Origin: an uncultured Gemmatimonadaceae bacterium
Lineage (GTDB): Bacteria; Gemmatimonadota; Gemmatimonadetes; Gemmatimonadales; Gemmatimonadaceae
Length of the DNA: 64,000 bases
NCBI GenBank assembly: GCA_963817955.1
Contig: CAWFQK010000004.1
Coordinates: 1,376,001 to 1,440,000 of the forward strand
Reading direction: 5' to 3'
The position numbers and the translations under genes were made by a program. The notes below the pieces were generated by a model that was given only the letters and a program-made list of their open reading frames with translations, was not told the origin of the DNA and made no database searches. Below are positions 2,720 to 23,263 of the stretch, piece by piece. Within the stretch, counting starts at the first letter, position 1. Each line of letters begins with the position of its first letter.

Positions 2720-3092
2720 CGGTTCGGCGGCGTGGAGACCTTCGCGCCGGAGCAGCGCGCCCAGCTCATTCTCGCTCAAGCCGCGCGCTTCGGTCACCAC
2801 GCGGAGCTTCTCCGCGCCCGTCCACCGCTTCTTCTTCTTCTTCGAGGAACCCATGCCCTCGACGTTACGCGCTTCCCGCAGCCATCGCGAGAGAGAGGCT
2901 GACCGACACCGACCTCGTGCGCGAGGGCGTTGGCACTCATCGCCGACGGCCCGATCAAGCGACGCAGCATTCGGTCCTTGAACGCCGGACTGTATTGCGG
3001 CATGACACTACCCACCTTTGACCCCCGAGGATGCTCTACGTTTGACCGCTTAAGCTACTGCGGTCGTACGACAACTATCCTGACACCGGGGG
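2720..3092 (-). pseudogene. IS3-family remnant (orfA, frameshifted and truncated)
   Basis: MPQYSPAFKDRMLRRL...(frameshift)...RWTGAEKLRVVTEARGLSENELGALLRREGL from ATG 3003. Boundaries are approximate. Confidence 0.65.
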
Positions 3093-4248
3093 GTCCGGGA
3101 TCGCGGACGTTAGGTCGCTTGCACCGTCAGTTGCCTTGGATCGTAGCGTTCTCCTCGTTTCCACAGTCGTAACGTGATCGCCGCGAGCTTCCGCGCGAGC
3201 GTCACCCGCGCCAGTTCCTCTCGCATGCCGCGGCTGACCAATCCCTGATACCACTCCCGCAACGCGGCCGTGGCGGCACCTTTGAACACATCCTTCACCA
3301 CGCGGGAGCTAATGTCGAAAGGTGTGGAAATAGACGGAAGGCGGTGACACCTTCTCGGGTGAGCCAATCACCCCCGGGAGAATCCCGGCAACGAAAAGGA
3401 GCCACCGCCCATGAAGAAGATGAAGGATGAGCCAGCCACGTCAAGCGCGACGTGGGACACATTGGAATCCTTTGCCCGGATGCATGTCCAAGGATTCATT
3501 CAGCAGCTGTTGGAAGAAGAGGTGACCGAGCTGCTCGGTCGAGCGAAGTCCGCGCGCCGTGGCGCGGTGGATGCGCCGGCCGGGGCGCGCAACGGGCACG
3601 GGAAGCCGCGGACCCTCGCGCTCATGAATGGGACCATCGTGGTGCGCCGGCCACGGGTGCGCGACCTGGATGAGCTGTTCGTGAGCCGCCTGCTGCCGCT
3701 CTTTCAGCGGCGCACCAAGGAACTGAGCACGCTGTTGCCCGAGCTGTATTTGCATGGCCTCGCGCTCGGGGATTTCGAACTCGCGCTCCGCGGCCTGTTG
3801 GGCGACGGGGCGCCGCTGAGTGCGAGCTCGCTTGTGCGCCTCAAGGCGACGTGGCAGGCGGAGTATGCGGTGTGGCAGCGGCGCGACCTGAGCGCCCTCA
3901 AGCTGGTGTATCTCTGGGCGGACGGCGTGTATGTGAAAGCGGGGCTTGAGCATAGCAAGGCGGCGCTCCTGGTGTTGATCGGCGCCGACGCGGAGGGGCG
4001 GAAACACGTCCTCGCGGTGACCAGTGGCGAGCGGGAATCGGTGGTGAGCTGGACCGCCGTGCTCCGCGACCTGAAGGCGCGCGGGCTCTGCGCCCCCAAG
4101 CTCACGACCCCGGCGGCCACCCAAACTCCCCCACCTGTGGCCACCTCAAAATCCCCCACCCGCTGATGGGTAGCGGCGCCTAATCCGAGGCGCCGAAACG
4201 GCAGGACGTACACTCCTCCTCGACTCTTTTTCGGGGAGTAACCACGGA

Positions 4249-5841
4249 GTGAACGTCTTGAAACCGCATCGACGCATCATGGTCGAGACGCTGCTGGCCA
4301 GCGGCGCGACGCACCGAGAGATCGAACGACGCACGGGCGTGGATCGAAAGACGATCCGCCGGTACGCGCGGGGCCCGGCCCCCAATGCGTCAAACTCCCC
4401 CACCCCGGCCACCGGCTTTGACGAGGCGGTTGCGCAAACTCCTCCACCCCGGCCACCGGCTTTGGCGGAGCGAGACGTCGTCGCGCAGGCGACGGTCACG
4501 GCGCCGACGCCCCGATGGACGCCCTCCGCGTGCGAGCCCCATCGCGCGTGGCTCGAGACCCAAGTCCAACTCGGGCGCAACGCCGTGAGTCTCTACCAGG
4601 AGCTCGTGGACGAGCACGGGTTCACGCATCACTACAACTCCGTCAAACGGTTCGTTGCCACGCTGCGACGGCGCGAACCGGAGCGATTCGATGTCTTGGC
4701 GTACCTGCCCGGCGAGGAGGCCCAAGTCGACTACGGCCAAGGGGCGTTGACGCTGTGGAAGCCCGATCACTACAAGCGACCGTACCTGTTCGTGATGACG
4801 CTCAAGTATTCCGGGAAGAGCTTTCGCAAGGTCGTCTGGAAGACGAATCAAGAGATATGGGCGCGGTTACACGAGGAGGCCTTCCGCACGTTTGGCGGCT
4901 GCCCAGCGTACGTGGTATTAGACAACTTAAAAGAGGGCGTACTCCGACCCGACCTCTACGAGCCCGAGCTGAACCCGGTGTACGCGGCGATGCTCGCCCA
5001 CTATGGCGTCGTGGCGGATCCGTGCCGCGTGCGGGATCCCAATCGCAAAGGGACCGTCGAAAGCGCGATCCAGCACACCCAAGGCACGGCCCTCAAAGGG
5101 AAACGGTTCGCGGCGATCGACGCGCAGAACGTGTATCTCGCGACGTGGGAAGAGCGCTGGGCCGCGACGCGCATCCACGGCCGCAAGAAGCGGCAAGTGC
5201 TCGAGATGTATCGCGAGGAGCAGCCGCACCTTCGCGCGCTCCCGGCCATGCCCATGCAGTACTTCACGCAAGGCACCCGCACTGTCGACGATAGTGGGCT
5301 CGTGCAAGTCAGCGCGTCGTACTACTCGGCGTTACCGGCCGCGCCGACGAGCACGGTCACCGTCCGCCTCTACGCGCGCGAGATCGAGATCCTCGATGCC
5401 GCCGGCCAACTGCTCCGCCGACACGAGATCGCCCCGCGCAAGGGGACCTTCACGATGGACGAGACGGATCGGCTCTTCAATCCCTCGCGCGAGACGGCTC
5501 GCTTGCTGAACAAAGCCGCGCGGATCGGTCCCCACACCGCCGCCTTCGCGCAGCATCTCTTTGCCCATCTCGGCCGGCCGGGCCAACGCGCGCTGTACGG
5601 CCTGACCAATCTCGTCCGCACCTACTCGTGCGCCAACATCGACGCCGTCTGTGCGCGCCTGGTTGCGGCCGAGTGTGTCACCTATGCCGCCGTGAAGCGC
5701 GCCCTGGAACGCACGTGCGCCCCGGACGCGTCGCCCACCCGGCCCATGCTGACGCAGACCGGCCCGGCGATCCGCGCCATCGCTGAGTACCAGGACTTCT
5801 GGGATACGCATTCACACACTCTCCTGCCGGAGCCCCGCTGA
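4249..5841 (+). CDS. istA: IS21 transposase IstA
   Basis: N-terminal HTH; PGEEAQVDYG, VLDNLK and KGTVE DDE motifs. Confidence 0.93.
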   Translation: MNVLKPHRRIMVETLLASGATHREIERRTGVDRKTIRRYARGPAPNASNSPTPATGFDEAVAQTPPPRPPALAERDVVAQATVTAPTPRWTPSACEPHRAWLETQVQLGRNAVSLYQELVDEHGFTHHYNSVKRFVATLRRREPERFDVLAYLPGEEAQVDYGQGALTLWKPDHYKRPYLFVMTLKYSGKSFRKVVWKTNQEIWARLHEEAFRTFGGCPAYVVLDNLKEGVLRPDLYEPELNPVYAAMLAHYGVVADPCRVRDPNRKGTVESAIQHTQGTALKGKRFAAIDAQNVYLATWEERWAATRIHGRKKRQVLEMYREEQPHLRALPAMPMQYFTQGTRTVDDSGLVQVSASYYSALPAAPTSTVTVRLYAREIEILDAAGQLLRRHEIAPRKGTFTMDETDRLFNPSRETARLLNKAARIGPHTAAFAQHLFAHLGRPGQRALYGLTNLVRTYSCANIDAVCARLVAAECVTYAAVKRALERTCAPDASPTRPMLTQTGPAIRAIAEYQDFWDTHSHTLLPEPR

Positions 5842-6608
5842 TGCCGATGTCCATCCCCGAGCTTGAACGCGCCCTCACCAATCTCCGCCTCTCCGGCATG
5901 ACGGCCACGCTGGAAGCCCGCGCGCTGCAAGTGGCCAGTCACGAGATGGGCTTTCTTGAGGCCTTCTCCTGGCTCGTGCAAGATGAACTCGACCGTCGTC
6001 GCTCCCGGCTGCTCGATCGGCGCCACACCCTCTCGGGACTCCCCGACCGCAAGGACCTCACGAGCTTCGACTGGACCTACAATCCGCGCCTCCCGAAACG
6101 CGACGTCCTCGACCTCGCGACGCTCAAGTTTCTTGACGCCAAGGAAGACGTGCTCGTCCTCGGTCCGCCCGGCACCGGCAAAAGTCACGTCGCCAAAGCG
6201 CTTGCCACCACCGCCGTTAGTCGAGGCTACAAGGTGCTCTATCGCGAAGCGCATCAGCTCATCGAAGACATCACCGAGGCGCGCGAGCTGGGAGAGATTC
6301 GGAAACTGCGTGCCCAGATCGCCGCCGCAGACCTACTCCTGGTCGACGATCTCTTTCTGCGCAAGCTCCCGACGACGGCCGGTGACGAACTCGCCGACGT
6401 CCTCATGGCTCGCCACGAAAAAGCGTCCACGATGATCACGTCCAACCGACCACTCGAGGACTGGACGCGACTCCTCGGGGATGTCGTCGTCGTCACCCCG
6501 CTCCTCGACCGCCTGATGCACCATGGCCATTTGCTCAAGTTTGATGGCAAGAGCTGGCGGCTGAAAGAGGCTGCCGCTCGGGCAGCCAAACAGAAGGCAG
6601 CGAACTAA
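5841..6608 (+). CDS. istB: IS21 ATPase IstB
   Basis: Walker A GPPGTGKS, Walker B LLLVDD, ITSNR, LDRLMHH. Confidence 0.95.
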   Translation: MPMSIPELERALTNLRLSGMTATLEARALQVASHEMGFLEAFSWLVQDELDRRRSRLLDRRHTLSGLPDRKDLTSFDWTYNPRLPKRDVLDLATLKFLDAKEDVLVLGPPGTGKSHVAKALATTAVSRGYKVLYREAHQLIEDITEARELGEIRKLRAQIAAADLLLVDDLFLRKLPTTAGDELADVLMARHEKASTMITSNRPLEDWTRLLGDVVVVTPLLDRLMHHGHLLKFDGKSWRLKEAAARAAKQKAAN

Positions 6609-8265
6609 CTTCCCCTCGTCCTGCCGGCCATCAAGTGGAGGAGTTTGACCCGGCCACAGGTGGGGGAGTTTGAGGTGGCCACCGGGGCTCACGATCGCCG
6701 ATGGGCATCTCGGCCTCTGGGGCGCTCTCGCGGCAATCTATCCGACGAGTGCCGAGCAGCGGTGTTGGAATCACAAGCTGCGGAACGTGCTCGACCTGGT
6801 GCCGACGAAACGCCAAGCCGAAGTCACCGTGCAGCTCCAGCAGATCGCCGCGGCGGAGACACAGCGGGCGGCGGAGCGGCTGCGCGACGCGTTTGCCCGC
6901 ACGTACCGTCGCGTGGTGCCCAAAGCCGTCGAGTGCCTCGAGCGGGATTGGGACCGCCTGGTCGCGTACTACGCCTTTCCGCAGGAGCACTGGAAGCATC
7001 TGCGCACGACGAACGTGATCGAGTCTCCGTTTGCCGCGGTGCGGCTCCGCACGACCGCGGCGAAGCGCTTCAAGAAAGTGGAGAACGCCACGACGTTGAT
7101 CTGGAAGACCTTACTCGTCGTCGAACAACATTTCCGCAAACTGAACGCCCCGCACCGCTGCACCGACGTGTACGATGGCGCCGTATTTCACGACGGAATC
7201 TGCACCGTGACCCCGACCCGGGAACGGATCGCCGCCTGACGCCTATTTACACACCAATTGACAAGAGCTCTCACCCGGTTGTGATTGCGATTGAGGCCAC
7301 GCGTCTGCACATACCGCCGCCGGCGGCGCACCGGCCGCTGACCGTCGAGCTCGTACTCGGCACTGGTCCGGGTGACGACCGCGAGGCCCGCGTAGGCCCA
7401 GAGGTGGCGCTTCGTGCGGAAGCGCCAGGGCGTCTGCAGCGTCGCGAGGAGGAGCGCGACCCGCACCGGTCCGAGATACGGAATGCTGCGCAGCCCGGCC
7501 CACGCCGGATCTCGTTTCGCTTCCGCGAGCATCGCCGCCTTCGCCTTGGGGCGTAGCTGCTGCAGGACCGCGAGTTCGTCGTACAATGTCGCGGCCCGGA
7601 ACCGCACGCCCCGCTCCGCCAACTGCTGCAGCCACGTCCGGCGCCGAGCTGTTTGATAGACGGCGGTGCCGGGCGTCTTGATGCCGCGCGCCCGAAACAA
7701 CGCCTTGAGCCGTTGCATCACGCGCGTCGAGTCCTCGACGAGATTGGCATAGGTCCGCGCCAGCTCTTTGAGCGTGGCCCGATCGGCACTGCCATGATAG
7801 ACAGCCCGGAGCCGCCCAGAGCGCAGCAATTCCGACAACTCGTCGGCATCCGGCTGATCGCCCTTGTTGCCTTGCGGGGCTTGTCCGCGCCGGTTGCACA
7901 CGAGGACCCGGTCCACCACGGGCACGAGCAGATCGTGCAGCCACTGCGCCTGCGTGCCTTCCTCAAACGCGACGTGGACGGAGCCACGCATGCCGCGGAA
8001 CCAGTCCACGATCGGCGCGGCCTCCGTTGGCAAAATGGTCCGCGCGATCACGCGTCCCGTCTCCTCTCGCACCGTCGTCCCCGTAGTTGCCTGGTGCACA
8101 TCGAGCCCGACATACTTCAGCGTCCGTTTCATGAGAGCGCCTCCTGGCTGGGAGCTGTGGTTGCTCAACAACTCCACATGACCCGTCAGGGGCGCGCGCT
8201 CAATATCCGTTAGCTCGCCACCTAGTAACGCTTTACGTTATGGGCGGCCAGCGTTATTATTGCAG

Positions 8266-9904: not shown

Positions 9905-10004
9905 GGCTAACGGTGCATGAAGCTGTCGAGCGGGCTATGGATTGCGCCGCCCGACGCGCGGCGCTTTTATCTGATCCGCTCGCAGCTTCTGCTCGGCGTT
10001 AGGC
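9905..10004 (+). repeat. attC site (complete)
   Basis: GGCTAAC ggtgcatgaagctgtcgagcgg...ccgctcgcagcttctgctcggc GTTAGGC. Confidence 0.88.
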
Positions 10005-13589: not shown

Positions 13590-13688
13590 GGCTAACGAAC
13601 GCTGAAGCCGACGGGCGACTTATTGATTTATGATGCCTGCGGCATCACTCTTATCTGACTCGCCCGCAGCTTAGCTCGGGCGTTATAC
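13590..13688 (+). repeat. attC site (complete)
   Basis: GGCTAAC gaacgctgaagccgacgggcga...tcgcccgcagcttagctcgggc GTTATAC. Confidence 0.92.
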
Positions 13689-13825
13689 GGCGCCCCGTCT
13701 ACCGAGCGAACGAAATGAATCCGAGTGTCATCCTGCTTGGTTTCATAATTCCGATCAGCGTTTTGGTCTGGTTAGATCGGCGCCTCCGGCGCGAGCCCCC
13801 CTCGACAACGGCGAGCTAAGATCCC

Positions 13826-14328
13826 GTGTACGTAGGCCACTTCGCCCTCGCGCTCGCCGTGAAGGGTCGGCGCCCAAAGTTACCGCTCGCGACATGTTTG
13901 ATTGCGGCGACAGCACCCGATCTAGCAATGGCGATCATGGGCATATTTGCCAACAGCACAACTGCCGACGCCTACTCGCACTCGCTGATCGCGGTCGTCG
14001 CGCTCGCGCTAATCGGTGGAATGCTCGCGTGGAGTTGTCAGCTAGGTACGGGGGGAGCGCTCTGGATTAGCGCGTTGGTTGCGAGTCATCTTCCGGCGGA
14101 TTGGGTGACCAGCCGTCTCGCGCTGTGGCCGCACGGCCCCGTCTGGGGGCCGGACTGTACGCGCATCCTGGCATCGATCTGGTCCTTGAAGGCGTGCTCG
14201 CGATCGGCGGATGGGCGATCTATCGTCGAGGACTTCCGCGAGCCATGGCCATGCGTGCGCTGGCATGGGCGCCGCTTGGCGTTCTGCTAGCCTTGCAGGC
14301 CGTTTGGGATATCATGAGCTGGCACTGA
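13826..14328 (+). pseudogene. Membrane metal-dependent hydrolase-like protein, frameshifted near 14150
   Basis: MYVGHFALAL, PDL, YSHSL and SHLPADW motifs; continues in another frame as GAGLYAHP...LEG. Confidence 0.65.
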
Positions 14329-14359
14329 GTCTCAGGCCGCTCCGCCCGCGCCGTATAAC

Positions 14360-15025
14360 GAGGATGTAGGAAAACCCTAATTGGCTGGCGAGCCGACCGC
14401 GCCGCGTCGTCGATGCGCGGCGGCGGAACTGGTCAGGCGTGTGGCGGCGGAATGCCGGTGACGACCGTGTTTCGGCGCGTTGTACCCCTCGGAACGGTGC
14501 CCCGCACCTACGCCGCGTACCCGTAGTGTGCGAGTTTCTCGATGTTGTGCACGAGACAGAACAGCTTCCATTGCGTCTCGACTTTGCGGCGGCCGCGCAG
14601 GGTGAAGCGATCGAGCCCTTTGTTGTAGCACAGTTTGCCGAACACCGGTTCCACGGCGCCGATGCGTTCCGCATACCGCCGCCGCCCCTCCGGCGAATCA
14701 ATGCGCCGTTTCATGCGGGCGGTGTGCGACTCGGGCAGCGGGGCCGTCTTGCCCTGGAAGAACATGACGGAGCGCACCTTCGTGGTCGACGGCGTCTCGA
14801 GACACCGGGCGCGCAGGACGCACGGGCCACAGTCGCGTTGCTTCCCCTGAAAGCGCGTCCAGATGTTGTCGCGATTCACCCACTGGGCGCCGCTCCGGTT
14901 GAGCACCTTGCCCGCCGGGCAGATGCACGTCCGCGCCTCGGCGTCGTACGTGCAGGCACTCGCCGGAAACACGGCGGCTGCCTGCACCGGAGCAGGATCC
15001 GCCTTGTCGTGCAGCGGATTGTGGA
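14360..15025 (-). mobile_element. IS1182-family element, copy 1 (partial) inserted after attC R'' GTATAAC
   Basis: IR GAGGATGTAGGAAAACCCT starts right after AAC. C-terminal transposase R...VEPVFG...F.LRG. Near-identical to the start of copy 2. Confidence 0.85.
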
Positions 15026-15497
15026 TGATCGAGCGGGGGCTGGCGGGGCTGGCGCAAGCGATCGGGACGACGGGTGACTGTGATCAGTCATCAGTGCGTG
15101 GGTCCTCAGTCCTCAGTGACGGAGGACCCCGACAGCCCTCGATCGGGCGAACAGACCCACGACCATCCACGCCAGGCGACACCGCGATCCGTTTCTACTG
15201 CCACTCACGATGTTCGCGGTGGTGTTCGTGGCAGCCGGCCTCGGCAAGGCAGCGACGGGCGCCGGCATCCTCAACCTGGACCTGATAGCGGGCGTCCTGG
15301 CGAGCGTCGGCTTCGCCCCCGCTCTGGATGCGGGCTTCGGCGGCGATGCGGGCCTCAGCGCCGAACGGGACACGTCCAGAGGTCTAGACGGTGTTCGTGC
15401 GGAGTGTGGGCGTTGGGCCCGCGCTGTCCAACCTACGCTGCCCGTTGACGGCAGCCAGCCGAGCGGAGACCTTACTGGTAAGACTTCAGGAGATCCC

Positions 15498-15761
15498 ATG
15501 AGCGAGGCTGCAACCACGACTCTGTCTTCCAAGGGTCAGGTCGTGATTCCCGAAGAAATCCGAGCGCGGCTCGGCTTGAAGACCGGCGCGCAGTTCGTCG
15601 TCGTCGCCGACCGAGACGTCGTGATCTTCAAGGTCCTTGATCCGCCCAGCCTGAGTGAGTTTGCCCCCCTTGTGACCCATGCTCGGCGCGTCGCAAAGGC
15701 CGCTGGTCTGCGGCAGGCGGATGTTGGCAAGGCCCTCGCCAAGGTTCGCCGGTCGCGGTGA
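15498..15761 (+). CDS. AbrB/MazE-type antitoxin
   Basis: TTLSSKGQVVIPEEIRARLGL motif; AGGAG RBS. Confidence 0.9.
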   Translation: MSEAATTTLSSKGQVVIPEEIRARLGLKTGAQFVVVADRDVVIFKVLDPPSLSEFAPLVTHARRVAKAAGLRQADVGKALAKVRRSR

Positions 15762-16174
15762 AGGTTATTCTCGATACGAACGTCGTTGTTTCTGGCGTCT
15801 TCTTCGGTGGCGTGCCGGGACGGATCCTGGACGCGTGGGCCGCAGGCCGTCTGGCGCTGGTTCTGTCGCCCGAGATCCTCGCTGAATACCAACGCGTCGG
15901 CGCTGAACTGGGAGCACAGCATCCGGAAGTCACCGAGGCGTGGGAGCCGATTCTCGCGCACATCACGATACATGCAACGATCGTTGACGCGCCGCCGCTT
16001 TCTGAGCCCGTGAGCGACGATCCGGCAGATGACATGTTTCTTGCCGCCGCACTCGCGGCGCGCACTCATGTGATCGTCTCGGGGGATAAACACCTATTGC
16101 GAGTTTCTGGATGGCGCGACATCGTGGTATACACGCCGCGACAATTCTACGCGCAGCATCTCGCCACCGGTTGA
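15758..16174 (+). CDS. PIN-domain toxin (VapC-like)
   Basis: VILDTNVVVS, E.LAEY, DPADDMFL, IVSGDKHLL. Confidence 0.92.
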   Translation: MKVILDTNVVVSGVFFGGVPGRILDAWAAGRLALVLSPEILAEYQRVGAELGAQHPEVTEAWEPILAHITIHATIVDAPPLSEPVSDDPADDMFLAAALAARTHVIVSGDKHLLRVSGWRDIVVYTPRQFYAQHLATG

Positions 16175-16182
16175 CAGCTAAC

Positions 16183-17802
16183 GAGGATGTAGGAAAACCC
16201 TAATTGGCTGGCGAGCCGACCGCGCCGCGTCGTCGATGCGCGGCGGCGGCGGAACTGGTCTGGCGTGCGGCGGCGGAATGCCGGTGACGACCGTGTTTCG
16301 GCGCGTTGTACCCCTCGGAACGGTGCCCCGCACCGACGCCGCGTACCCGTAGTGTGCGAGTTTCTCGATGTTGTGCACGAGACAGAACAGCTTCCACTGC
16401 GTCTCGACTTTGCGGCGGCCGCGCAGGGTGAAGCGATCGAGCCCTTTGTTGTGGCATATATTGCCGAACACCGGTTCCACGGCGCCGAAGCGTTTCGCAT
16501 ACCGCCGCCGCCCCTCCGGCGAATCAATGCGCCGTTTCATGCGGGCGGTGTGCGACTCGGGCAGCGGGGCCGTCTTGCCCTGGAAGAACATGACGGAGCG
16601 CACCTTCGTGGTCGACGGCGTCTCGAGACACCGGGCGCGCAGGACGCACGGGCCACAGTCGCGTTGCTTCCCCTGAAAGCGCGTCCAGATGTTGTCGCGA
16701 TTCACCCACTGGGCGCCGCTCCGGTTGAGCACCTTGCCCGCCGGGCAGATGCACGTCCGCGCCTCGGCGTCGTACGTGCAGGCACTCGCCGGAAACACGG
16801 CGGCTGCCTACACCGGAGCAGGATTCGCCTTGTCGTGCAGCGGATTGTGGAAGGCTTTGTGGTGATCCTGCGTGGCGAAGCGCTCATCTCGGCGGCGCAT
16901 GTCGTTGTCCGCGATGAGCGCGTCGACCGACATCGCGGCGAGTTGCTGCACGTTCGCGTCGCTGTGGTAGCCTGCATCGGCCGTGATCAATGACTCCGCC
17001 GTGAGCAGTCCTTGCATTGCCGCGACGAAGGGATTCTGCTGGAGCCACTCCCGGACCTGCGCCGCATCGTTCTCCAGGCGCTCGACGCGTTGCTTCTCCT
17101 TCTCCAGCAGCGTCGGCTCCGCCGACAGCTGATCCGCTGCGCGATGGCGCGCGAGGATCGTCTGCGCGGCAGCTTCGAGCTTCGTCGCCTGTCGCTCGAA
17201 GTCGGCGCGCGTCCCGCTCCGTCGCTTCGCCGCGTTGCTGGGGAACTTCACCCCATCGATGGCGAACAGCTCGCGACCGATCAGTCCCTCGGCATCGCAG
17301 GTCGCCACCACGGCCGCGAACACGCGAGCGATGTCATCGCCCACCGTGCTCACGAAGTGCGCGATCGTGGTGAAATGCGGGGCCGTGTCGCCTGAGAGCG
17401 ATGAACGTGACCTGCTCGCGACAGGCGCGCTCGATGCCCCGGCTGCTGATGATCCCATGGGCGTAGGCGACGAGCACGACCTTGAGGAGCATCGCCGGTG
17501 GATACGCGGGCGCGCCGGTGTCGTCGTTCTGGAATCGCTCATCGAAGCGTGGGAGGTCGATCGCGTGATCCAGCAGGTGATTGACCGCGTGTTCGAACGT
17601 GCCCGGAAGCAGTTGGCGCGCGAGATCAATGGCCAAGAACTTCGGATTGGTGTCGATGTACTTGTAGCGAGCCATGGCAGGACACCGGAGGAGGGTCAAC
17701 CGCGATGTGCACAGCGCTCCACGCCCGACGCTTCTTCAACCCGCCAGTTGCTTCGCGAGTCACCTCACCACAGACTCTATCGCAGGCTTTTTCTACAGCC
17801 TC
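16183..17802 (-). mobile_element. IS1182-family element, copy 2 (both ends; transposase pseudogene)
   Basis: IRs GAGGATGTAGGAAAACCCT / reverse complement GAGGCTGTAGAAAAAGCCT; AAC duplicated at both junctions. Transposase from ATG 17675 has GAPAYPP.MLLK, IDGVK and ADAGY, with a frameshift near 17400, an apparent internal deletion and a stop at 16808. Confidence 0.88.
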
Positions 17803-17896
17803 AACGAGCGCTGAACTTGACAAAGGGGCCATTGAATACGCTCGCTGCGCGAGCGTTCTTATATGATCCCTTTGCAGGTTAGCTCAAGCGTTATGC
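17803..17896 (+). repeat. attC site split by IS1182 (R'' AGCTAAC at 16176-16182)
   Basis: AAC gagcgctgaacttgacaaagggg...ccctttgcaggttagctcaagc GTTATGC. Confidence 0.88.
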
Positions 17897-17917
17897 TGAA
17901 TCCTTCCCTCCGCTGCT

Positions 17918-18673
17918 ATGACAGTCGGTAGCCAACTCGACCTACGCCACTTCGCGCTGAGTGTTCTCGCATGCGATGCACCAGATGCGACACCTACGCA
18001 GATCTGCGGAACGGCCTTTGCGATAGGAGGCGGCTATTTTGTCACAGCCGCGCACGTGCTTGACACCGTGCTCGAGTCACGCGCTCCCTCTCTTGGCTTT
18101 CTACCAGATCAAGCCCCGCTCGGACCAGTAGCATACTACCAGGCTCCGATCACCCGGCATGAGATCGTGCGAGGCCTTGACCTCGGAATTATCGCGTGTG
18201 CTGGTGGACCCTACGGCACTTTTCAGTGGTTCGGCAGAGATGTTGCCCTCCTGACAAACGTCTTGGCTGGCGGCTATCCGTACGCGCTCGAGCGCGATCG
18301 TTTGCAAGTGTTTGTTCGCGCCTATCGTGGTTCCATCGCCTCAGCGCATCAGATATATCAGCTTCCCGACGAGCCTGGCGGATACGAACTTTCATTTCCG
18401 GCGCCGCGAGGGTTGTCCGGGGCACCGCTGCTACTTCAGCAAATGCCGCCAATTGTGGTCGGCTATATCGTAGAGAATGGCCGCTCTGGCATGCTGGTCA
18501 TGAGCCATCGTGAATCGATTGCTGAATCGTCCTCGGAGACGGTTGTTGAGCAGTATGAGTACCTGACTTACGGGATTGCCGTGAGCTCAAGTGCAGTGGT
18601 AGAGGTTCAGAGTGAGCTGCTGGGCGGGACGATCAAAGATCACTTGAAGCGTCACAACCTATTCATAGATTGA
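17918..18673 (+). CDS. Trypsin-like serine peptidase cassette (no signal peptide)
   Basis: GTAF.IG, TAAHV (His), LDLG (Asp), GYP, GLSGAPL (Ser). Confidence 0.85.
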   Translation: MTVGSQLDLRHFALSVLACDAPDATPTQICGTAFAIGGGYFVTAAHVLDTVLESRAPSLGFLPDQAPLGPVAYYQAPITRHEIVRGLDLGIIACAGGPYGTFQWFGRDVALLTNVLAGGYPYALERDRLQVFVRAYRGSIASAHQIYQLPDEPGGYELSFPAPRGLSGAPLLLQQMPPIVVGYIVENGRSGMLVMSHRESIAESSSETVVEQYEYLTYGIAVSSSAVVEVQSELLGGTIKDHLKRHNLFID

Positions 18674-18690
18674 TTTCGATCCGCGATGCA

Positions 18691-18780
18691 GCATAACGTG
18701 CGTTGCACCAGCCGGGCGAGCTTTGGTAGCTCGCTGCGCTCGCATTTTGTTTGATTCGCCCCCAGGTAAACTCGGGCGTT
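18691..18780 (+). repeat. attC site split at R' by IS110 type B (continues TAGAC at 20341)
   Basis: GCATAAC...ctcgggcGTT|IS. The reconstructed GTTAGAC matches the next cassette end GTCTAAC. Confidence 0.88.
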
Positions 18781-20340
18781 GATATGACTGGGCTGGTGTC
18801 AAACGCTTAGTTCATTCGACGGTCACTGCGTTGGTAGTTGTGATGTAAGTGGATCGTGGAACGACGGGGGGCCGAGGCAGCATCGACGATGAATCCTGCT
18901 GATATGCGCCGGTTGCCGCGACGCGGCAGAGCGGCAAGAATTGGATTCGTCGGGAGCTGGCTCATTCTAGGCTCGGGGATCCCGCTATCACATGGAACGC
19001 ACGGGCCGCCATAACGCCGTCGAGAGTACTCGCACATCGAGCCTCGGCACCGCACGTCGGACCACGATCACCTGGGTCATGCCGCTTGCACCGGCTCGAG
19101 CTCGCGCATCACGGCCCACAGGAAGCCGACGAGTTCGCGCGCCACGGCCACGACGGCGATCTGTGGGCGCTTCCGATAGCTCAGATGATTGTATCGTTGG
19201 TGCAGCCGCTGCTGCGCTTTCCAGGCGTGGGTGAGCACCGCGGGCGGTAGCCCTTGCTGTCGCCGCTTGAGATCGACGCTGATCTGCGGACGATGCCGAT
19301 AGCTCCACGCCGCCTGCACGAGCACATGGCGGCAATGACTGTTGGCCGCCGTCGTGATCGAACCAAGCCGCACCTGATTGCCACTCGAGTCTTCGCGTGA
19401 GACGAGCCCGAGGTAGCAGGCGAGTTGGCGCGGATGCTCGAACCGCCGCCAGCCGACGAACTCCGTGGCCTGCACCATAGCGGAGTACACCGAGATGCCG
19501 CGGAAGCACTGCAACTGCCTCACCATCGGGACGAGCGTTGGGAGTTCGGCGAGCCGCTCGATCTGTCGATCCAACTCCTCGCGCCGCTGCAGCTTGTACA
19601 GCAACAACGCGTGGAACTCTCGATAGATGAGCCGGTCATCCGAGGCGAGCGGCGACCCGTCCGTCGTGAGGTGCTGGAGCCATTGGAGGTGCGGCGTGCA
19701 CCAATTGGTGCCCTCGGGAAACACAAAGCCGCGACGCGCGAGGAACTTGAGGATGTAGTGCCGCGACTTGAGGATCTCGCGTTGAAAGATCTCACGACAG
19801 CGGACGACATCACGGACGCGCTCCTCAGCTTCACTGGGGATGCGCACGGGGACCAGCTCGCCCGCGCGATAGAGTCGCGCCAGGTCTGCGGCATCGCGCT
19901 TGTCATGTTTCCGTTGGACCCCGGGCCGCTTGGGAATCAGCGAGGGCGCGATCACGTCACACGCGTAGCCCCACTCGCGGAGCGCACGATGCAGCACGTA
20001 GCCCGTGCCACTCGCTGGCGTAACAGGCGCGCAGATCGCCGGCCCGGGCTGTCCGTGCCAGCCATTTCTTGAGGACCGGCAAGTCGTTGGTCAGCTTCTC
20101 GAGCCGGGTCGGCGTTGTCGCCGCCGCGGGTAAGACCGCGATGGTGATCGAGTCCTTGTGCACATCCATCCCGAGATGGATGATAGAGGGAGCAGCAGGC
20201 AGCACGACCGAAGGCAGTGATGACATGGGTTGGTCGCCGTGTACGACACGTCGGATCGTCGCAGGTGGCTCTGGGAACTCCGTCTCAACGCGTGAGGAAC
20301 TAATCCACGCTAAGATCGGAGGCCAGCCAGTCATAACTTC
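18781..20340 (-). mobile_element. IS110/IS1111 element type B (transposase 19077-20226, frameshift near 20020)
   Basis: HLGMDVHK, KHDKRDA and YLGLVSREDSSG motifs. Sub-terminal IRs TATGACTGGGCTGG / CCAGCCAGTCATA. About 295-bp non-coding region downstream of the transposase. Confidence 0.9.
18880..19050 (-). ncRNA. Candidate bridge/seek RNA of IS110 type B
   Basis: Stem-flanked loops contain matches to the attC core (TAACGCC 19012-19018; CTAGGC 18967-18972) and to the IS circle junction (AGAATT 18937-18942; CTGATATG 18899-18906). Boundaries are approximate. Confidence 0.6.
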
Positions 20341-21229: not shown

Positions 21230-21460
21230 GATCGGACGTGTGCAAGCGATTGGGTCGCGCGGAGGCGAACCATGGTTCTATCTGAGACTCGGCCGCACGG
21301 GCCGGCCTGTCGCTTATTCGGGTTCTGCGGAAGGGCCTATGGTTAGCCGAGTGCCTCGGCGGGACTGCTTGGCCGGGCGAACGCCCAAGATGAGACTGTC
21401 TTCCGCACCCACGTCCCGAATCCTGGAGCCGAGCGGGGGGCAAACGCCCACCTCACGGCG
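21230..21460 (-). ncRNA. Candidate bridge/seek RNA of IS110 type A
   Basis: AACGCCC (21380-21386) and GTTAGCC (21342-21348) match the two sides of the attC core; GTTCTAT (21275-21281) matches the donor junction. The second donor guide was not identified. Confidence 0.5.
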
Positions 21461-21476
21461 TCCGGGATCGCGGACG

Positions 21477-22544
21477 TTAGGTCGCTTGCACCGTCAGTTG
21501 CGTTGGATCGTAGCGTTCTCCTCGTTTCCACAGTCGTAACGTGATCGCCGCGAGCTTGCGCGCGAGCGTCACCCGCGCCAGTTCCTCTCGCATGCCGCGG
21601 CTGAGCAATCCCTGATACCAGTCCCGCAACGCGCCCGGCCGCACGGACGCGGCCGTGGCCGCCCCTTTGAACACATCCTTCACCACGCGGTTGTGATTGC
21701 GATTGAGGCCGCGCGTCTGCACATACCGCCGCCGACGGCGCACCGGCCGCTGACCGTCGAGCTCGTACTCGGCGCTGGTCCGGGTGACGACCGCGAGGCC
21801 CGCGTAGGCCCAGAGGTGGCGCTTCGTGCGGAAGCGCCAGGGCGTCTGCAGCGTCGCGAGGAGGAGCGCGACCCGCACCGGTCCGAGATACGGAATGCTG
21901 CGCAGCCCGGCCCACGCCGGATCTCGTTTCGCTTCCGCGAGCATCGCCGCCTTCGCCTTGGGGCGTAGCTGCTGCAGGACCGCGAGTTCGTCGTACAATG
22001 TCGCGGCCCGGAACCGCACGCCCCGCTCCGCCAACTGCTGCAGCCACGTCCGGCGCCGAGCTGTTTGATAGACGGCGGTGCCGGGCGTCTTGATGCCGCG
22101 CGCCCGAAACAACGCCTTGAGCCGTTGCATCACGCGCGTCGAGTCCTCGACGAGGTTGGTATAGGTCCGCGCCAGCTCCTTGAGGGTCGCGCGATCGCGA
22201 CTGCCATGATAGACGGCCCGGAGCCGCCCGCAGCGCAGCAACTCCGACAACTCGTCGGCATCCGGCTGATCGCCCTTGTTGCCTTGCGGGGCTTGTCCGC
22301 GCCGGTTGCACACGAGGACCCGGTCCACCACGGGCACGAGCAGATCGTGCAGCCACTGCGCCTGCGTGCCTTCCTCAAACGCGACGTGGACGGAGCCACG
22401 CATGCCGCGGAACCAGTCCACGATCGGCGCGGCCTCCGTTGGCAAAATGGTGCGCGCGATCACGCGTCCCGTCTCCTCTCGCACCGTCGTCACCGTAGTT
22501 GCCTGGTGCACATCGAGCCCGACATACTTCAGCGTCCGTTTCAT
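21477..22544 (-). CDS. IS110-family transposase (intact)
   Basis: MKRTLKYVGLDVH, FEEG and KGDQPDA (DEDD RuvC); YAGL...TSA C-terminal domain. Confidence 0.92.
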   Translation of the reverse strand: MKRTLKYVGLDVHQATTVTTVREETGRVIARTILPTEAAPIVDWFRGMRGSVHVAFEEGTQAQWLHDLLVPVVDRVLVCNRRGQAPQGNKGDQPDADELSELLRCGRLRAVYHGSRDRATLKELARTYTNLVEDSTRVMQRLKALFRARGIKTPGTAVYQTARRRTWLQQLAERGVRFRAATLYDELAVLQQLRPKAKAAMLAEAKRDPAWAGLRSIPYLGPVRVALLLATLQTPWRFRTKRHLWAYAGLAVVTRTSAEYELDGQRPVRRRRRYVQTRGLNRNHNRVVKDVFKGAATAASVRPGALRDWYQGLLSRGMREELARVTLARKLAAITLRLWKRGERYDPTQLTVQAT

Positions 22545-22652
22545 GAGAGCGCCTCCTGGCTGGGAGCTGTGGTTGCTCAACAACTCCACATGACCCGTCA
22601 GGGGCGCGCTCTCAATATCCGTTAGCCTGCAACCCTGCCTCCCAACGGCTCC

Positions 22653-23009: not shown

Positions 23010-23027
23010 GACGCATCTCGATCTGCA

Positions 23028-23090
23028 GGCTAACGAACGACGCAGCTGTCAAGGGACTGTCCCACTCGCAGCTGACATTCAGGGGATACC
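23028..23090 (+). repeat. Terminal degenerate attC
   Basis: GGCTAAC gaacgacgcagctgtc...cgcagctgac; no R' GTT. Confidence 0.6.
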
Positions 23091-23263
23091 GCGCGGTGAG
23101 TCGGCTTACGCCGCGGCGGATTTCGTGGTGGTGAGGTTGTGCTGAAGCGCCTGCTTGAGCAAGGGCAAATGGCGATGGTTCTTCGCCCGGCAATACTGTC
23201 GCTCCACGGCCCACAAGGCCGCGGCACCGCTTGAATTGCAGCTAGCCCTGGGACTCCACTGCT

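Follow-up and report, generated by a model that had tools for sequence, protein, structure and literature searches.

An IS1182-family insertion sequence found at the R boxes of integron attC sites in Gemmatimonadota and other bacteria

Introduction

Can an insertion sequence (IS) that moves by a classical DDE transposase be specific for the recombination sites of integron cassettes? The question is raised by a 64,000-nucleotide stretch of DNA from an uncultured Gemmatimonadaceae bacterium (GenBank assembly GCA_963817955.1, contig CAWFQK010000004.1, positions 1,376,001 to 1,440,000; hereafter the window, by whose numbering positions are given), in which two copies of an IS1182-family element lie in a cassette array, each starting directly after the AAC of the R'' box of a different attC site. 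Integrons are the main gene-capture platform of bacteria and, to our knowledge, mobile elements described as attC-specialised are of two kinds only, the IS1111-attC insertion sequences and the group IIC-attC introns. An earlier reading of the window from its letters (below, the original prediction) had suggested a DDE transposase with attC specificity. The junctions of the window copies and of their relatives lead us to propose, with a probability of about 0.8, that a large, environmental clade of IS1182-type elements inserts site-specifically in the 7-bp R box of integron attC sites.

Two Relic Copies in One Cassette Array

The more complete of the two copies, copy 2, occupies positions 16183-17802 on the minus strand at its full length of 1620 bp, bounded by terminal inverted repeats at 16183-16197 and 17788-17802 (GAGGATGTAGGAAAA and GAGGCTGTAGAAAAA) that match at 13 of 15 positions. 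To its left stands the R'' box AGCTAAC (16176-16182, plus strand), the last three bases of which (16180-16182) are the first AAC of a target duplication; the second AAC follows the element at 17803-17805 (plus strand). Beyond it lies the rest of the split attC (17806-17896, plus strand), consisting of a spacer, an L'' arm with two extra bases, the loop, the L' arm, a further spacer and the R' box GTTATGC (17890-17896). The transposase gene of copy 2 (16178-17675, minus strand) is a pseudogene with matches to DUF772 and DDE_Tnp_1_6, disrupted by a frameshift near 17400 and by an in-frame TAG at 16808-16810 that reads CAG in copy 1. In the stretch 16178-16300 its reading frame continues across the terminal repeat and takes its stop codon, TAG, from the flanking R'' box.

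Copy 1 is a 666-bp fragment (14360-15025, minus strand) that retains the 3' part of the transposase gene and, of the two terminal repeats, the one far from the transposase start. The fragment begins directly after the R'' box GTATAAC, its outer flank (14353-14359, plus strand), lies 1.8 kb from copy 2 in the same orientation, and is 97.8% identical to the matching end of that copy. Both window copies are dead relics. The junctions, read at 14359 and 16182, agree with the original prediction that two co-oriented copies directly follow the AAC of two attC R'' boxes, and that copy 2 duplicates the AAC and leaves the remaining attC downstream. The extent then assigned, 14353 to 17896, is to be amended in two details: copy 2 ends at 17802, and copy 1 is truncated.

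A search of the same genome with the repeat motif returned five exact matches, four of which are ends of this type of IS. All four ends are preceded by YTAAC, with a stop codon 1-24 nt upstream. Outside the window, two short relics of the same IS end (approximately 20 bp and 93 bp) were found at C1:51916 and C1:52487, 571 bp apart on another contig, each after the R'' box of a different cassette in a second attC cluster; the intervening cassette encodes the end of a HicA-like protein. Four public sequencing runs, in which at most one tenth of the sampled words were present, yielded only short contigs on 13600-18900, none across an IS junction, and no joints.

Assignment to the IS1182 Family

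Three pieces of the window transposase match PF05598 (DUF772; E 2.9e-9), PF13751 (DDE_Tnp_1_6; E 2.2e-23) and, weakly, PF01609, and the same three domains are listed in precomputed Pfam annotation for 120 homologues. No match to PF01548 or PF02371 was obtained with the window transposase; both domains occur in other open reading frames (ORFs) of the window. An intact homologue of 515 aa from the same genus (P0001) scored 269 bits on the NCBIfam model for IS1182, NF033551, over positions 6-487 of 488 (cut-off 270), and the next-best family, IS5, gave 52.8 bits. Terminal repeats of 15-18 bp were recovered at both ends in 64 of 80 related loci, with element lengths of 1624-1909 bp, as well as in window copy 2. 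The element is an IS1182-family IS of 1.6-1.9 kb with a single DDE transposase of approximately 510 aa and the repeat consensus GAGGCTGTAGAAAAA, the family to which it had been assigned from the outset. Existing records name the 120 homologues just 'transposase' or 'IS1182 family transposase'. Among 8000 candidates scored, at least 7854 protein clusters fell below E 1e-50, and many homologues are located on contigs of approximately 2 kb.

Junctions of Related Elements

Relatives were gathered by a protein-guided scan of one genome per species, which confirmed 568 loci; the best 80 of these (57-78% identity) were analysed. Their genomes are labelled as Gemmatimonadota, Thiobacillus, Rhodocyclaceae, Gallionella, Steroidobacteraceae, Polyangiales, Phycisphaerales, Methylomirabilales and others. 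The most direct comparison is with an intact copy of 1785 bp in the same genus (approximately 75% DNA identity), which is preceded by GCGCTAAC and followed by AACGAACGC and then by the rest of an attC of the window type. This copy is oriented opposite to window copy 2, and the AAC therefore belongs to the target and not to the element.

The same junctions recur throughout the sample. Every left end with enough flanking sequence (73 of 73) bears AAC (65) or CGTT (8), and 67 of 68 right ends bear AACG (59) or GTT (8). Where both ends could be read, a perfect 3-bp repeat was present in 62 of 63 elements, the exception differing by one changed base. Among 55 unique target sites, 48 have C at position -5 and 51 have T at -4; G follows at +1 without exception (55 of 55), a position on which the method placed no constraint. 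The pattern extends to a more distant copy in Pseudoalteromonas piscicida, with a transposase 42% identical, which lies in ATATAAC/G of a 99-nt attC hairpin (here and below, the slash marks the point of insertion). Other named IS1182 members carried on plasmids share at most 29% protein identity with the clade. As an outgroup check, necessarily a weak one with a single plasmid member having clear ends, ISPpu20 showed unrelated repeats and no AAC flanks; a second plasmid member gave an ambiguous pair of ends, and for a third none was found.

Two observations on these loci stand apart. At approximately 1383-1387 of locus L132, two IS copies abut with only AAC between them, one having inserted in the ...TCAAC/G junction of the other. 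Four loci from different assemblies (L011, L110, L122 and L133) share an outer flank that contains TTGACA and ends ...AGTCATATCAAC at the IS; this flank may mark the boundary of an array, or a cassette start that is widespread.

The Targets Are Mostly attC Sites

When the flanks were rejoined, the sequences gave hairpins of 57-150 nt whose RYYYAAC and GTTRRRY boxes are complementary. With a folding heuristic applied in a strict form, 32 of 55 IS sites were scored as attC, against 40 of 540 control YTAACG sites in the window's own genome (odds ratio 17, Fisher p = 1e-18); in a relaxed form the counts were 42 of 55 and 120 of 540 (22%), respectively. By eye, about six of the 13 sites that failed the relaxed test are plain attC sites mis-scored by the folding step. 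The surroundings are also rich in such sites. After exclusion of the 200 nt beside each element, the flanks of the 80 loci, 125.8 kb in all, contained a further 39 attC-like hairpins by the strict form of the test. This density, 0.31 per kb, is 35 times the genome-wide 0.0088 per kb. Among five genomes checked, four encode an integron integrase above the cut-off, the distance from intI to the IS copies was 2.5-14 kb in two and 72-82 kb in a third, and in three of the five the IS copies sit on the cassette side of intI.

A DDE transposase with attC specificity, as originally proposed, is thus what the related loci of several phyla indicate, since they read CTAAC/IS/AACG and most of their empty sites are attC hairpins. 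Tabulation of flanks in the window's own genome and in relatives likewise went in favor of the proposal: the copies are not mostly at generic AAC or TAAC, and attC sites are in excess over the YTAACG controls.

Which Box, and in Which Orientation

An attC site offers two R boxes, and the side of the hairpin that carries the extrahelical bases was used to tell them apart. The window copies and the same-genus copy have the extra bases on the arm beside the insertion, and the cassette genes run in the same direction, which places these elements in R'', at the 5' end of the site. With the relatives, the strand that reads RYYYAAC/G...GTTRRRY was scored in 53 sites: the single-base bulges fall on its 3' arm in 36 and never on its 5' arm, and 17 sites are undecided (only pure single-arm bulges were counted and the central spacer was kept out); the bulged bases are typically G and T, approximately 6 nt apart. 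A separate family-level sample gave 3'-arm bulges in nine sites, and 5'-arm bulges only in the window copy and its same-genus relative. The strand bulged on its 3' arm is, in what we take to be the canonical attC geometry, the bottom strand, so that insertion in the relatives would correspond to the R' core box. It is in this box that the crossover triplet of the integrase resides, C/GTT/RRRY on the top strand. From these sequence features most relatives appear to occupy the R' core box, with the R'' position seen only in the window's genus; R' placement is also consistent with where intI lies, and on which strand, in three genomes.

The original prediction had placed the window insertions at the end of attC opposite to that used by known attC-targeting elements. 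This does not apply to the window itself, because R'' is at the same 5' end near which IS1111-attC elements and group IIC-attC introns insert, antisense to the cassettes, according to the available text of PMC3001079; it does apply to most of the relatives, at R'.

The choice of arm can be explained by sequence, given the bases that follow the triplet. At proteobacterial sites G follows on the R' side alone; at Gemmatimonadota sites G follows on both sides, the unused side usually having A at +2, and the used sites have T or C at +2 in 46 of 55. Judged by the local arm, 54 elements share one orientation and eight have the reverse, the eight being the most divergent (57-60% identity). Antisense placement with respect to the cassettes is found for all window copies and for 32 of the 36 elements that could be classified, a bias that may result from targeting or from selection. 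Codon-position GC was tried as an indicator of the coding strand and was discarded as too noisy.

A Model for Insertion and Its Alternatives

The clean 3-bp repeat, together with the terminal repeats, points to ordinary DDE integration. Integration would take place at 5'-CTAAC/G-3', where staggered cuts on either side of the AAC would duplicate the triplet. Where R'' also is followed by G, as in the attC type of the window, R'' can be used instead, as happened at least twice in the window's array and twice more on contig C1. The transposase most likely reads TAACG directly, given that this word is invariant, and some feature of the attC context probably contributes as well, because attC sites are in excess over the sequence-matched controls and all four relics in the window's own genome are in attC. 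If the site is folded, the AAC triplet would be the last part of the R-box helix, at its junction with the unpaired spacer. Following insertion, the outer junction would again read CTAAC/G and the inner one ...TCAAC/G, with AAC at each. The integrase may still be able to use the split attC, and the IS may then travel within a cassette; the second IS in the ...TCAAC/G junction of L132 suggests that a split site can remain usable. A more ambitious version, in which the clade recognises folded or integrase-bound attC, rebuilds the R box (...TCAAC) and rides on cassettes moved by the integrase as a third class of integron parasite, is regarded as speculative and rather improbable.

Three other explanations were weighed against site-specific insertion in the R box. 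The most substantial holds that only a word, CTAACG(Y), is recognised, without any sensing of structure, and that selection does the rest, R boxes being the commonest harmless carriers of that word. The presence of TAACG in 55 of 55 sites with positions -5 and -4 nearly invariant, the retention of the word at the few sites that are not attC, the landing of an IS in the ...TCAAC/G of another IS in L132, and a choice between R' and R'' that the +2 base could account for (T or C in 46 of 55, usually A on the unused arm) are all as this explanation would have them. It nevertheless seems to us doubtful, though the least so of the three, for attC-like sites make up only 40-120 of the 540 YTAACG controls compared with 32-42 of the 55 IS sites, the relics in the window's own genome are in attC in four cases out of four, and selection alone would need to purge nearly all insertions in intergenic DNA and in dispensable genes.

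That the elements seek hairpins or terminators in general, attC sites being merely abundant stem-loops here, has a precedent within the family: IS1272 inserts in hairpins without primary sequence preference, as the accessible text of PMC4923244 describes, and attC sites are hairpins downstream of ORFs. Such targeting is very unlikely for the present clade, in which the insertion point is fixed to one nucleotide, TAACG is invariant, and a clean 3-bp duplication arises with no loss of target, whereas with IS1272, in the same portion of that source, part of the hairpin is lost and no duplication arises; moreover, the targets display R boxes, bulged bases and an array context. Least probable of all is that the window copies stem from a local duplication or rearrangement, or that the element is itself a cassette placed by the integrase. 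Their spacing of 1.8 kb, common orientation and 97.8% identity would suit the former, and insertion at or beside the integrase triplet the latter. Against both, the flanks of copies 1 and 2 are unrelated immediately upstream of TAAC, which excludes a local duplication carrying the flank and removes the doubt about copy 1 that the original prediction had entered; a further pair of relics is found on a different contig; the element is bounded by terminal inverted repeats, is flanked by a 3-bp duplication and brings no attC with it; both orientations occur; and the 80 loci represent independent insertions in unrelated attC sequences.

Several points weigh against site-specific insertion in the attC R box. 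Both window copies are broken, and a search of 30 same-genus genomes with the toxin-antitoxin cassette of copy 2 gave one weak partial match only and no empty-site allele. The NF033551 score of P0001 is 1 bit below the curated cut-off. The attC test is a heuristic of our own making, distinct from IntegronFinder, that misses obvious cases and has false positives, and approximately six of the 55 rebuilt sites (L046, L066, L067, L073, L086 and L105) are unconvincing as attC. These six still carry CTAACG or ACAACG, and hence sequence alone may suffice for insertion. An excess of attC matches would also be expected if purifying selection removed insertions from genes. Finally, the distinction between R' and R'' depends on predicted bulges and on the canonical attC geometry, and the position of intI supports it in three genomes only.

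Setting of the Window Copies

The region from 13.6 to 18.9 kb of the window belongs to the cassette array of a chromosomal integron. Its integrase gene, intI, is located at C4:1373624-1374562, 1.4 kb upstream of the window (TIGR02249, 414.6 bits, cut-off 265). In the textbook layout intI and the cassettes are divergent; here intI lies upstream of the array and shares the orientation of the cassette genes. A fold-based scan detected at least eight similar attC hairpins on the plus strand between 1467 and approximately 21080, with the form nnYTAAC, 6-nt spacer, stem, loop, return stem, 8-nt spacer and GTTATRC, the 5' arm of the plus strand carrying two bulges of one base each. Like attC sites by definition, each holds an imperfect palindrome between an R'' (RYYYAAC) and an R' (GTTRRRY) box, which are complementary and stand 50-150 nt apart. 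An intact neighbour of the same type, at 13590-13688 (plus strand), serves for comparison with the interrupted sites, and further plus-strand hairpins are present at 1467-1559, 9905-10004, 18691-18784 and from 20986. Two other routes to attC sites were abandoned: the motif TTATNTGATCC recovered two real sites only, and a scan demanding 6 of 7 R-box matches returned mostly noise.

Pfam-supported cassette ORFs terminate just 5' of the attC hairpins. The attC targeted by IS copy 1 follows a YdjM-like ORF (13826-14290), and that carrying copy 2 belongs to a toxin-antitoxin cassette (15498-16174, plus strand) composed of genes for a MazE-type antitoxin (15498-15761) and a PIN_3 toxin (15758-16174), both assigned by Pfam, the toxin gene ending at 16174. 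Abutting the truncation point of copy 1 is a short repeat (15027-15170, no strand assigned) of approximately 126-145 bp, resembling a miniature inverted-repeat transposable element, with more than 20 copies in the genome, 88-97% identical, on contigs C1, C2 and C4; it looks like a miniature transposon. The last attC-like site (23027-23100, CTAAC GAACGA ...) marks the end of the array, after which ordinary genes follow (amidase, L,D-transpeptidase, TauE).

Other mobile elements have accumulated in the same region. A nested set of insertions spans 3090-8214, where an IS110-type element (3090-3270 and 7272-8214) is interrupted by an IS256-type element (Transposase_mut halves at 3411-4163 and 6670-7236), itself interrupted by an IS21-type element (IstA-like, 4249-5838; IstB, 5841-6605). 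The IS110-type element recurs at 21457-22626 (98% identity over 943 bp), and a third IS110-family gene, different from the other two, lies at 19080-19997. The IS110-type junctions that were inspected showed no obvious attC on both sides, which lends no support to the five attC-precise insertions by three elements counted in the original prediction.

Relation to Known Elements and Implications

Elements of the IS1111-attC group (ISPa21, ISPst6 and ISKpn4) resemble the present clade in that the IS is found at one fixed position of attC, antisense to the cassettes (available text of PMC3001079 and PMC11187229). They differ in having a DEDD transposase guided by a seekRNA, no usual terminal inverted repeats and a location near the 5' end of attC, while the present clade has a DDE transposase of the IS1182 family, repeats of 15-18 bp, an AAC duplication and a position at an R-box triplet that is mostly at the 3' (R') end. 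Group IIC-attC introns such as S.ma.I2 are likewise specialised for attC and antisense to cassettes, entering the bottom strand of the site (PMC3001079, in the part available). Unlike the present clade they are retroelements, with a ribozyme and a reverse transcriptase, that home through RNA and have no transposase, inverted repeats or duplication.

Within its own family, the clade shares DUF772 and DDE_Tnp_1_6 domains, a length of approximately 510 aa and terminal inverted repeats with the IS1182 elements defined by NF033551. Palindromic targets are known there, some members being credited with such targeting in a review cited in the accessible part of PMC4923244, and IS1272 and TnSha1 of staphylococci, as presented in the available portions of PMC4923244 and PMC5678879, are IS1182-family elements with palindromic or hairpin targets. 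Against the behavior of IS1272 stand the invariant TAACG, the clean AAC duplication in 62 of 63 elements, and an attC left intact. No report of attC targeting by an IS1182-family or any other DDE IS was found in the full-text literature, a search to which subscription journals, ISfinder and TnPedia were external, and a named member of the clade with its target recorded may stand in either of these two resources. In the text available of a 2022 integron review no such element is among those listed, and what Cury et al. (2016) report, in the part accessible, is limited to the frequency of IS-containing integrons.

We regard the element as a new kind of attC-targeting IS, one based on a DDE transposase, of which the window holds two dead copies at the less common R'' position, and the clade looks like a widespread, apparently undescribed parasite of integron cassette arrays. 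A classical DDE IS that enters the R box with a precision of one nucleotide would add a third kind of attC-specialised element, with a range that takes in Gemmatimonadota, Beta- and Gammaproteobacteria and other phyla. It may shape the arrays of soil and freshwater bacteria through splitting, rearrangements, attC clusters that lack an integrase, and the silencing of downstream cassettes, and, with many homologues on contigs of about 2 kb, may help to explain why integron arrays assemble poorly from metagenomes. The clade also provides a natural system for the study of how a DDE transposase precisely reads a short word or a DNA structure. If its members do read structure and ride on cassettes, then cassette exchange would be used for horizontal spread by a mechanistically distinct parasite.

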